Assembly (NCBI RefSeq): GCF_016026235.1
Contig: NZ_CP065613.1
Source: Escherichia coli
GTDB lineage: Bacteria > Pseudomonadota > Gammaproteobacteria > Enterobacterales > Enterobacteriaceae
DNA length: 64,000 nucleotides
Strand: one strand, 5' to 3'
Position numbers and translations under genes: made by a program. The notes beneath the pieces were generated by a model. It searched no databases. It saw nothing but the letters and a program-made list of their open reading frames with translations, and had not been told where the DNA came from. The stretch's first letter is position 1; the number at the start of each line of letters is the position of its first letter. This document shows positions 56,214 through 59,073 of this stretch, in pieces.

Positions 56214-57641
56214 ATGATGAATGACGGTAAGCAACAATCTACCTTTTTGTTTCACGATTACGAAACCTTTGGAACGCACCCCGCGTTAGATCGCCCTGCA
56301 CAGTTCGCAGCCATTCGCACTGATAACGAATTCAATGTCATCGGCGAACCCGAAGTCTTTTACTGCAAGCCCGCGGATGACTATTTACCCCAGCCTGGAG
56401 CAGTATTAATTACCGGTATTACCCCGCAGGAGGCACGGGCGAAAGGAGAAAACGAAGCCGCGTTTGCCGCCCGTATTCACTCGCTTTTTACCGTACCGAA
56501 GACCTGTATTCTGGGCTACAACAATGTGCGTTTCGACGACGAAGTCACACGCAACGTTTTTTATCGTAATTTCTACGATCCTTACGCCTGGAGCTGGCAG
56601 CATGATAACTCGCGCTGGGATTTACTGGATGTTATGCGTGCCTGTTATGCCCTGCGCCCGGAAGGAATAAACTGGCCTGAAAATGATGACGGTCTACCGA
56701 GCTTTCGCCTTGAGCATTTAACCAAAGCGAATGGCATTGAACATAGCAACGCCCACGATGCGATGGCTGATGTGTACGCCACTATTGCGATGGCGAAACT
56801 GGTAAAAACGCGTCAGCCACGCCTGTTTGATTATCTCTTTACCCATCGTAATAAACACAAACTGATGGCGTTGATTGATGTTCCGCAGATGAAACCCCTG
56901 GTTCACGTTTCCGGAATGTTTGGGGCATGGCGCGGCAATACCAGCTGGGTGGCACCGCTGGCGTGGCATCCTGAAAATCGCAATGCCGTAATTATGGTGG
57001 ATTTGGCAGGAGACATTTCGCCATTACTGGAGCTGGATAGCGACACATTGCGCGAGCGTTTATATACCGCAAAAGCCGATCTTGGCGATAACGCCGCCGT
57101 TCCGGTTAAGCTGGTGCATATCAATAAATGTCCGGTACTGGCCCAGGCGAATACGCTACGCCCGGAAGATGCCGACCGACTGGGAATTAATCGTCAGCAT
57201 TGCCTCGATAACCTAAAAATTCTGCGTGAAAATCCGCAAGTGCGTGAAAAAGTGGTGGCGATATTCGCGGAAGCCGAACCGTTTACGCCTTCAGATAACG
57301 TGGATGCACAGCTTTATAATGGCTTTTTCAGTGACGCCGATCGTGCAGCAATGAAAATTGTGCTGGAAACCGAGCCGCGTAATTTACCGGCACTGGATAT
57401 CACTTTTGTTGATAAACGAATTGAAAAACTGTTGTTCAATTATCGAGCGCGCAACTTCCCGGGGACGCTGGATTATGCCGAGCAGCAACGCTGGCTGGAG
57501 CACCGCCGCCAGGTCTTCACGCCAGAGTTTTTGCAGGTCTACGCTGATGAATTGCAGATGCTGGCACAACAGTATGCCGATGACAAAGAGAAAGTGGCGC
57601 TGTTAAAAGCGCTTTGGCAGTACGCGGAAGAGATCGTCTGA
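56214..57641 (+). CDS. sbcB: Exodeoxyribonuclease I
   Basis: 475-aa product from MMNDGKQQSTFLFHDYETFGTHPALDRPAQFAAIR (DnaQ-like exonuclease motif). Confidence 0.9.
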   Translation: MMNDGKQQSTFLFHDYETFGTHPALDRPAQFAAIRTDNEFNVIGEPEVFYCKPADDYLPQPGAVLITGITPQEARAKGENEAAFAARIHSLFTVPKTCILGYNNVRFDDEVTRNVFYRNFYDPYAWSWQHDNSRWDLLDVMRACYALRPEGINWPENDDGLPSFRLEHLTKANGIEHSNAHDAMADVYATIAMAKLVKTRQPRLFDYLFTHRNKHKLMALIDVPQMKPLVHVSGMFGAWRGNTSWVAPLAWHPENRNAVIMVDLAGDISPLLELDSDTLRERLYTAKADLGDNAAVPVKLVHINKCPVLAQANTLRPEDADRLGINRQHCLDNLKILRENPQVREKVVAIFAEAEPFTPSDNVDAQLYNGFFSDADRAAMKIVLETEPRNLPALDITFVDKRIEKLLFNYRARNFPGTLDYAEQQRWLEHRRQVFTPEFLQVYADELQMLAQQYADDKEKVALLKALWQYAEEIV

Positions 57642-57644
57642 AAC

Positions 57645-57677
57645 AAAAAAGCCGGAGCGACAAACTCCGGCTTTTTG
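57645..57677. terminator. Bidirectional terminator between convergent sbcB and plaP
   Basis: Hairpin aaaaaagccggagcgacaaactccggcttttt; a second hairpin accggatgattatgtcatccggt follows at 57684-57706. Confidence 0.5.
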
Positions 57678-57714
57678 AGATTTACCGGATGATTATGTCA
57701 TCCGGTTTGTAAGA

Positions 57715-59073
57715 TTACGCTACGTCTTCGTACTGCGGAACCGGGTTACGGAAACTCTTGGTTACGCAAGCCAGATAAATCAGGCCGATAGCAGCCCAGA
57801 TCAGACCCAGAACCATTGAGCTTTCTTCCAGGTTAACCCACAGCGCACCAACGGTCAGCGCACCACACATCGGCAGGAACAGATACTGGAAGTGATCTTT
57901 CAGCGTCTTGTTACGCTTCTCACGGATCCAAAACTGCGAGATGACCGACAGGTTAACGAAGGTGAACGCCACCAACGCACCAAAGTTAATCAGCGCCGTA
58001 GCCATTACCAGGTCGAAGTTGATTGCCAGCAGGGCAATCGCGCCAACCAGGATGATGTTCATCGCCGGAGTACGCCATTTCGGGTGTACATAACCGAAGA
58101 AGCTTTTCGGGAACACGCCGTCACGACCCATTACGTACATCAGACGCGCAACGCCTGCGTGCGCCGCCATACCGGACGCCAGTACGGTAATGGTGGAGAA
58201 GATCAGCGCGCCAACCTGGAACGCTTTACCCGCCACGTACAGCATGATTTCAGGCTGTGACGCATCCGGATCTTTAAAGCGAGAGATATCCGGGAAGTAC
58301 AACTGCAGGAAGTAAGTTGCAAAGATGAAGATCATGCCGCCGATCAGCGCGGTCAGGAAAATCGCACGCGGGATCACGCGCTCTGCATCTTTGGTTTCTT
58401 CCGACAGGTTGCTGATGCCGTCAAAGCCGGTAAAGGAGAAGCACAGGATTGTCGCCCCGGTAATCATCGGGATAACATGCGCATCGCCAGACCAGAACGG
58501 ACGCGTGCTCGCCAGCGTACCAGCGCCTTCACCTTCAAATACGCCATAAACAACCATGCCCAGAATCACCGCGATCAGCACTACCTGCAACACGACGATT
58601 ACAGTGTTGAAGTTCGCTACGGATTTCAGACTACGCAGGTTAAAGGCGGTCATAAAGGCCACCAGCGCCACCACAAACATCCACGATGGAATGGAAGGCA
58701 CCAGAGCTTCAAAATAGATTTTCGCCAGCAGAATGTTGATCATCGGCGCGAACAGATAGTCGAGCAGAGAAGACCACCCCACCATAAAGCCGACAGTCGG
58801 GCTAATGGATTTCTGGGCGTAAGTGTATGCAGAGCCAGCAGAAGGATAGCGGCGAACCAGCTTCCCGTAGCTCAGAGCCGTAAACAGGATCGCAATCAAT
58901 GCGAACGCATAGGCTGTCGGCACATGACCATCCGTGAGGCCTGAAACGATACCAAATGTATCAAACAGCGTCATCGGCTGCATATAGGCTAGACCCATCA
59001 TTACAACCGGAACTAACGTAAGCGTTTTACGCAATTCCACGCGAGAGGTGTTTGGAGTAACGTTATGCGACAT
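57715..59073 (-). CDS. plaP: Putrescine importer (APC family)
   Basis: 452-aa 12-TM permease from [24 protein letters not shown]... Confidence 0.9.

Follow-up and report, generated by a model that had tools for sequence, protein, structure and literature searches.

A tsuBA-less allele of the sbcB-plaP interval in Escherichia coli, with a candidate bidirectional terminator between the two convergent genes

In the window analysed here, a 64-kb stretch of Escherichia coli DNA, the convergent genes sbcB and plaP are direct neighbours, and the stretch between them encodes neither TsuA nor TsuB. The adjacency itself is confirmed. It is highly probable that the window carries the tsuBA-less allele, one of two old and common alleles of the sbcB-plaP interval in Escherichia and other Enterobacteriaceae, in which one conserved hairpin would terminate both genes and whose scattered distribution would be due to recombination. 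The arrangement is an ordinary presence/absence polymorphism that has already been documented: E. coli strains without yeeD and yeeE (tsuB and tsuA) were reported by Iguchi et al. 2011 (PMC3158064), together with a strain in which an IS200-like element separates sbcB from yeeF. The yeeD/yeeE-less strains of that study show the same arrangement as the window, with no substantive difference.

The stop codon of sbcB (TGA, 57639-57641) and that of plaP (57715-57717, TTA on the + strand) leave a spacer of exactly 73 bp between the two genes (Table 1), as the initial annotation had stated. By tblastn with K-12 proteins, SbcB, PlaP, YeeY and YeeZ are placed in the window in K-12 order. The same search without a coverage filter found no remnant of TsuA or TsuB in the 64-kb window, where all matches had E>1 and were of the kind given by chance, which bears out the earlier statement that yeeD and yeeE are missing here. 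In a genome that is locally 100% identical to the window (L002), PGAP names sbcB and plaP and annotates no gene in between; the PlaP accession it assigns, WP_000019197.1, is also given in a K-12 derivative (L001). The adjacency being a matter of gene order, it has no chance expectation with which it could be compared.

Table 1. Features of the sbcB-plaP locus in the window
Feature	Coordinates	Strand	Evidence
sbcB (exodeoxyribonuclease I), 475 aa	56214..57641	+	ORF list; tblastn, 99% identity to K-12 SbcB; PGAP on L002
sbcB-plaP spacer, 73 bp, empty-site allele without tsuB-tsuA	57642..57714		sequence; 1210 of 5426 E. coli genomes; near-identical in E. whittamii (L004); homologous to K-12 L001 3445-3502
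Predicted bidirectional intrinsic-terminator hairpin, AAAAAGCCGGAG / loop CGACAAA / CTCCGGCTTTTT	57646..57676		predicted fold; conservation
Second hairpin, ACCGGATGA-TTATG-TCATCCGGT, perfect 9-bp, no T-run, beside plaP	57684..57706		fold; specific to the Escherichia empty allele
plaP (putrescine/proton symporter), 452 aa	57715..59073	-	tblastn, 100% identity to K-12 PlaP; PGAP

The reference arrangement is given by the annotation of the K-12 derivative L001, in which sbcB (555-1982, +) is followed by tsuB/yeeD (2025-2252, -), tsuA/yeeE (2266-3324, -) and plaP (3503-4861, -), with a stop-to-stop interval of 1520 bp between sbcB and plaP. The yeeD-yeeE pair, which the initial annotation had placed between the two genes, is indeed there, and sbcB and plaP are not directly adjacent in this reference. 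The window and K-12 share the flanking genes and their orientation, with protein identities of 100% for PlaP and 99% for SbcB and a nucleotide identity of 98.0-98.6% over the flanks, and the plaP-proximal terminator hairpin of K-12 is homologous to the spacer hairpin of the window. By contrast, an additional 1462 bp (L001 1983-3444) is present in K-12, made up of the CCTCCGCCG/CGGCGGAGG hairpin, the tsuB and tsuA genes and the region upstream of tsuA. K-12 is also without the 22 bp that make up the second hairpin of the window, and its sbcB ends with TAA instead of TGA. In the full allele, found in K-12 and ~78% of E. coli, the extra segment would represent a self-contained 1.46-kb module that comprises a hairpin of its own, both tsu genes and the promoter region of tsuA, and that is seated between the stop codon of sbcB and the terminator of plaP. 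The CCTCCGCCG/CGGCGGAGG hairpin would then be common to sbcB and tsuB, and the conserved hairpin would serve plaP only.

Alignment of the two alleles showed that the left-hand homology stops at the sbcB stop codon. Within the 1520-bp interval of K-12, similarity to the window spacer is confined to the plaP terminator; in the 5' part of the spacer, AACAAAAAAGCCGGAGCGACAAA aligns with AATAAAAAAACCGGAGC..CAAA of the K-12 terminator, with 19 of 21 positions matching. In addition, GATGATTATG is common to K-12 and the window near the plaP stop codon. In K-12 it overlaps this stop codon; in the window it is the left arm of the second hairpin, with 22 bp between it and the stop. From these two homologies, the whole 73-bp spacer corresponds to L001 3445-3502, and the difference between the alleles to L001 1983-3444. 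No direct repeats were found at the ends of the K-12 cassette, and neither cassette sequence nor the sbcB-tsuB hairpin was found at the window junction. The clean deletion scar for which the initial annotation suggested a search is absent; the spacer represents the conserved region of the plaP terminator, and homology to K-12 breaks off at the sbcB stop codon. The GC content of the cassette, 48.8%, is similar to that of the flanks.

The spacer hairpin has a GC core in which positions 57651-57657 are paired with 57665-57671, with an A-run on its 5' side and a T-run on its 3' side, and it lies 3-4 nt past the sbcB stop codon in the empty allele. A 12-bp stem is present in the predicted RNA fold of both strands, and the 96-nt region folds with -34 and -34.7 kcal/mol, corresponding to z of -4.5 and -5.4 against shuffled sequences. 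In the predicted fold, both strands have a stem-loop followed by a U-run (AAAAAAGCCGGAG…CTCCGGCTTTTT); after the stem comes UUUUUGAG on the strand of sbcB (+) and UUUUUUGUUU on that of plaP (-). Intrinsic terminators that act in both directions between convergent genes form a known general class. The spacer hairpin has the architecture of this class, namely a GC-rich stem with a 5' A-tract and a 3' T-tract, such that each of the converging transcripts would end in a hairpin and a U-run. It differs in that its function is here predicted from sequence and folding, and in that the U-run of the + (sbcB) strand is shorter than that of the - strand. Because the hairpin is flanked by an A-run and a T-run, and is predicted to fold on both strands, the earlier proposal that the two convergent genes share a bidirectional terminator gains support: in the empty allele, where the plaP hairpin lies just past the sbcB stop codon, it most plausibly ends the transcription of both genes.

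The hairpin was not listed by a simple consensus scan for promoters and terminators, probably because the A- and T-runs are taken up in its stem. Rfam covariance models gave no family in the spacer, the best match being Thr_leader with 18.6 bits compared to a gathering score of 55 (E 0.7). Among the Enterobacteriaceae loci listed in our survey, an A-run/CCGGAG…CTCCGG/T-run hairpin lies beside plaP in 43 of the 47 tsuBA-less and in all 21 tsuBA-bearing loci, and the tsuBA cassette is always on the sbcB side of it. This conservation in empty and full loci alike points to the hairpin as the conserved terminator of plaP. The second hairpin has a single occurrence in the window and is also present in E. 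whittamii and in another E. coli genome (L086). The 22-bp stretch absent from K-12 is bounded by the near-identical repeats GATTATG and GATTA(C/T)G, and this difference beside the plaP stop codon would fit slippage, as a small deletion or duplication, or a template-switch event.

The frequency of the two alleles was assessed in 5426 complete E. coli genomes. A 1073-bp junction query matched 5424 of them, contiguously in 1212 and split in the remainder, and an independent query derived from E. whittamii retrieved the same 1212 contiguous genomes. The K-12 tsuBA cassette is present in 4209 genomes (~78%), and the site is empty in ~22%. As the two counts sum up to 5421, the two states are essentially complementary, and from these counts the empty-site genomes appear to have no cassette elsewhere. 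Moreover, an 85-bp spacer query matched 1210 E. coli genomes, 997 of which at 99% identity or higher, and none that bears tsuBA; the empty sites of E. coli thus form one allele family. The named empty-site strains include ST131, F11, PMV-1 and 042, in addition to small-genome swine and ETEC strains. By strain name, ST131, F11 and PMV-1 would belong to phylogroup B2 and 042 to phylogroup D. The tsuBA-less RefSeq genomes (ST131, 042, F11, PMV-1 and others) have the same arrangement as the window, with a 73-bp spacer that is the same or nearly so, and PGAP annotates the sbcB-plaP adjacency in >1200 RefSeq genomes. A PlaP search of contigs yielded short matches at contig edges, in which both arrangements were seen.

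The ST131 genome examined here (L085) carries an IS200C of about 712 bp (1003-1712) between the sbcB stop codon and the terminator foot AACAAAAAAGCC. The insertion site, which corresponds to window 57641/57642, is the same point as that of the tsuBA cassette in K-12. About one-third of the spacer matches listed end early, like that of this IS200C-bearing genome.

Species-representative genomes were scanned with SbcB, giving a list of 80 loci that is without E. albertii, E. fergusonii, E. marmotae, E. ruysiae and Salmonella. Among the loci listed, tsuB-tsuA lies between sbcB and plaP in 21, from some Citrobacter, all sampled Kluyvera, Pseudocitrobacter, Superficieibacter, some Kosakonia, one Lelliottia and Huaxiibacter. 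It is absent, with a spacer of 52-163 bp, in 47 of the loci listed, which come from E. whittamii, other Citrobacter, all sampled Enterobacter, other Kosakonia and Lelliottia, Leclercia, Phytobacter and others. Presence and absence both occur within Escherichia, Citrobacter, Kosakonia and Lelliottia. E. whittamii (L004) is colinear with the window, with a nucleotide identity of 91.3% over 11.4 kb, and its spacer is also 73 bp long, with ~6 differences from that of the window. The empty allele, including the second hairpin, is thus at least as old as the split between E. coli and E. whittamii, unless it was exchanged between the two species long ago.

The full allele also bears signs of age. Over 210 pairs, the identity of TsuA rises and falls with that of SbcB (Pearson 0.77). 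Among the loci listed, K-12 TsuA is closest to the Citrobacter proteins (88-89.5%), as is K-12 SbcB (92-93%). The parallel between the two proteins and their shared nearest relatives argue against a recent import of the cassette. Both states are thus old alleles at a fixed site. As the flanks of the window and K-12 are only ~2% diverged, the age of the polymorphism within E. coli is not readable from them.

Several loci of the survey have other arrangements. In place of tsuBA, Raoultella, Klebsiella-like and some Enterobacter-labelled loci (L026, L031, L032, L054, L055, L064, L065) have 2.8-3.0 kb of other sequence; sbcB and plaP are separated by 649 bp in L073; and plaP does not occur within 6 kb in several Klebsiella loci. 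In Escherichia sp. MOD1-EC7003 (L003 7426-7709), a hairpin, GGAGGCGGGATCACTCCCGCC, is found 3' of sbcB, followed by unrelated sequence up to the contig end. This downstream sequence corresponds to neither tsuB nor the empty spacer and may represent a mobile element. In addition, PlaP itself falls into two allele classes at the same locus across Enterobacteriaceae, among the loci listed (L004-L082). Class I, with identities of 94.5-100%, is found in E. coli, E. whittamii, some Citrobacter, some Enterobacter, Kluyvera georgiana and Pseudocitrobacter; class II has a median identity of 94.9%, and identities between the classes are 85-91%. The neighbouring SbcB has no such class split, with a median of ~85% in all comparisons, and the PlaP class is independent of genus and of tsuBA presence. 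This pattern suggests either an old plaP dimorphism or a transfer of plaP between genera.

The surroundings of the locus are mosaic. The 1-kb junction is 100% identical to that of strain 2009C-3133, whereas the 11.8-kb neighbourhood is closest to other strains, its best matches (99.4%) being small-genome swine, ETEC and human strains, and the whole window is only 98-99% identical to 2009C-3133, with rearrangements. The sbcB-plaP locus lies in the segment flanking the his and O-antigen genes, which is covered by comparisons of O-antigen exchange and for which an exchange of large segments has been described (PMC3158064, PMC5359238). In view of the patchy spread over lineages, the local mosaicism and this location, the scattered distribution of the alleles is best explained by allelic replacement, which would proceed through homologous recombination in the conserved flanks.

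Upstream of ~52.1 kb, the window is mosaic with respect to 2009C-3133, with blocks of 90-99% identity in a changed order. According to the annotation of that strain, the blocks of window 1-52000 contain CP4-44-like prophage or island genes (yeeS/T, cbeA/cbtA, dynamin-family, patatin-like), together with IS elements, cobUST, tRNA-Asn genes, nac/cbl and shiA/amn. A further genome labelled E. coli, CUWW06 (L087), has a foreign-looking sbcB-tsuB-tsuA-plaP-yeeZ-his segment, with a nucleotide identity of only 73-86% to the window. In this genome yeeY and yefM-yoeB are missing from the locus, and a gene for a tyrosine recombinase lies upstream of sbcB. The segment has the appearance of an import from a different genus by way of the his/O-antigen region.

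Other origins of the arrangement were weighed against this evidence. A recent, strain- or lineage-specific deletion of yeeD-yeeE from a K-12-like ancestor, with a scar at the junction, would agree with the presence of the genes in K-12 and 78% of E. coli. The cassette also seems to be an old resident, given that TsuA tracks SbcB, so that at some depth of the tree the empty alleles may derive from deletions. However, a recent event is very improbable: the same 73-bp spacer is shared by 1210 genomes of different lineages and recurs in E. whittamii, in a region ~9% diverged from the window, while the junction retains no cassette sequence, sbcB-tsuB hairpin or direct repeats and instead consists of the conserved plaP terminator region. 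A loss of ~1.5 kb from the window through misassembly or collapse has nothing in its favour and was rejected as virtually impossible: the identical junction is shared by >1200 complete genomes that were finished independently, sbcB and plaP are both intact, and the spacer itself is conserved.

A third account takes the empty site as ancestral in Escherichia, with tsuBA inserted or imported later in an ancestor of the A/B1/C/E-type lineages, so that the window would simply have kept the original state. E. whittamii, the B2 strains (ST131, F11, PMV-1) and phylogroup D 042 are all empty, as are most of the sampled species, with 47 short spacers compared to 21 full intervals among the loci listed, and the IS200C at the same point in ST131 indicates that the site tolerates insertions. 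Salmonella LT2, in which sbcB also adjoins yeeF, counts for this account as well. Against it, the TsuA divergence between E. coli and Citrobacter is about that of SbcB and the GC content matches the flanks, which gives no sign of a foreign donor, and the empty allele is also carried by small-genome swine and ETEC strains that look non-B2, so that the tree is not split cleanly. We therefore regard a later acquisition as possible but doubtful, and prefer the reading of two old alleles at a fixed site. A more elaborate version of that reading, in which tsuBA presence/absence is a long-lived polymorphism that crosses species, is selected by niche on thiosulfate use, is moved by recombination and stands beside an independent plaP dimorphism, is speculative and on present evidence unlikely.

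TsuA (YeeE) and TsuB (YeeD) form a thiosulfate uptake route that is redundant with CysPUWA, and MG1655 ΔcysPUWA ΔyeeE cannot use thiosulfate as sole sulfur source (PMC11073785). By extension of these published K-12 genetics, empty-allele strains, which are without the TsuA/TsuB importer, should rely on CysPUWA alone for thiosulfate uptake. Metabolic and regulatory models based on K-12 should accordingly not be carried over unchanged to ~22% of E. coli, including ST131 and other extraintestinal pathogenic lineages, although the practical consequence would be modest and no new question is opened. The site offers a small and clean example of a conserved terminator that would serve one gene or two, depending on the allele.
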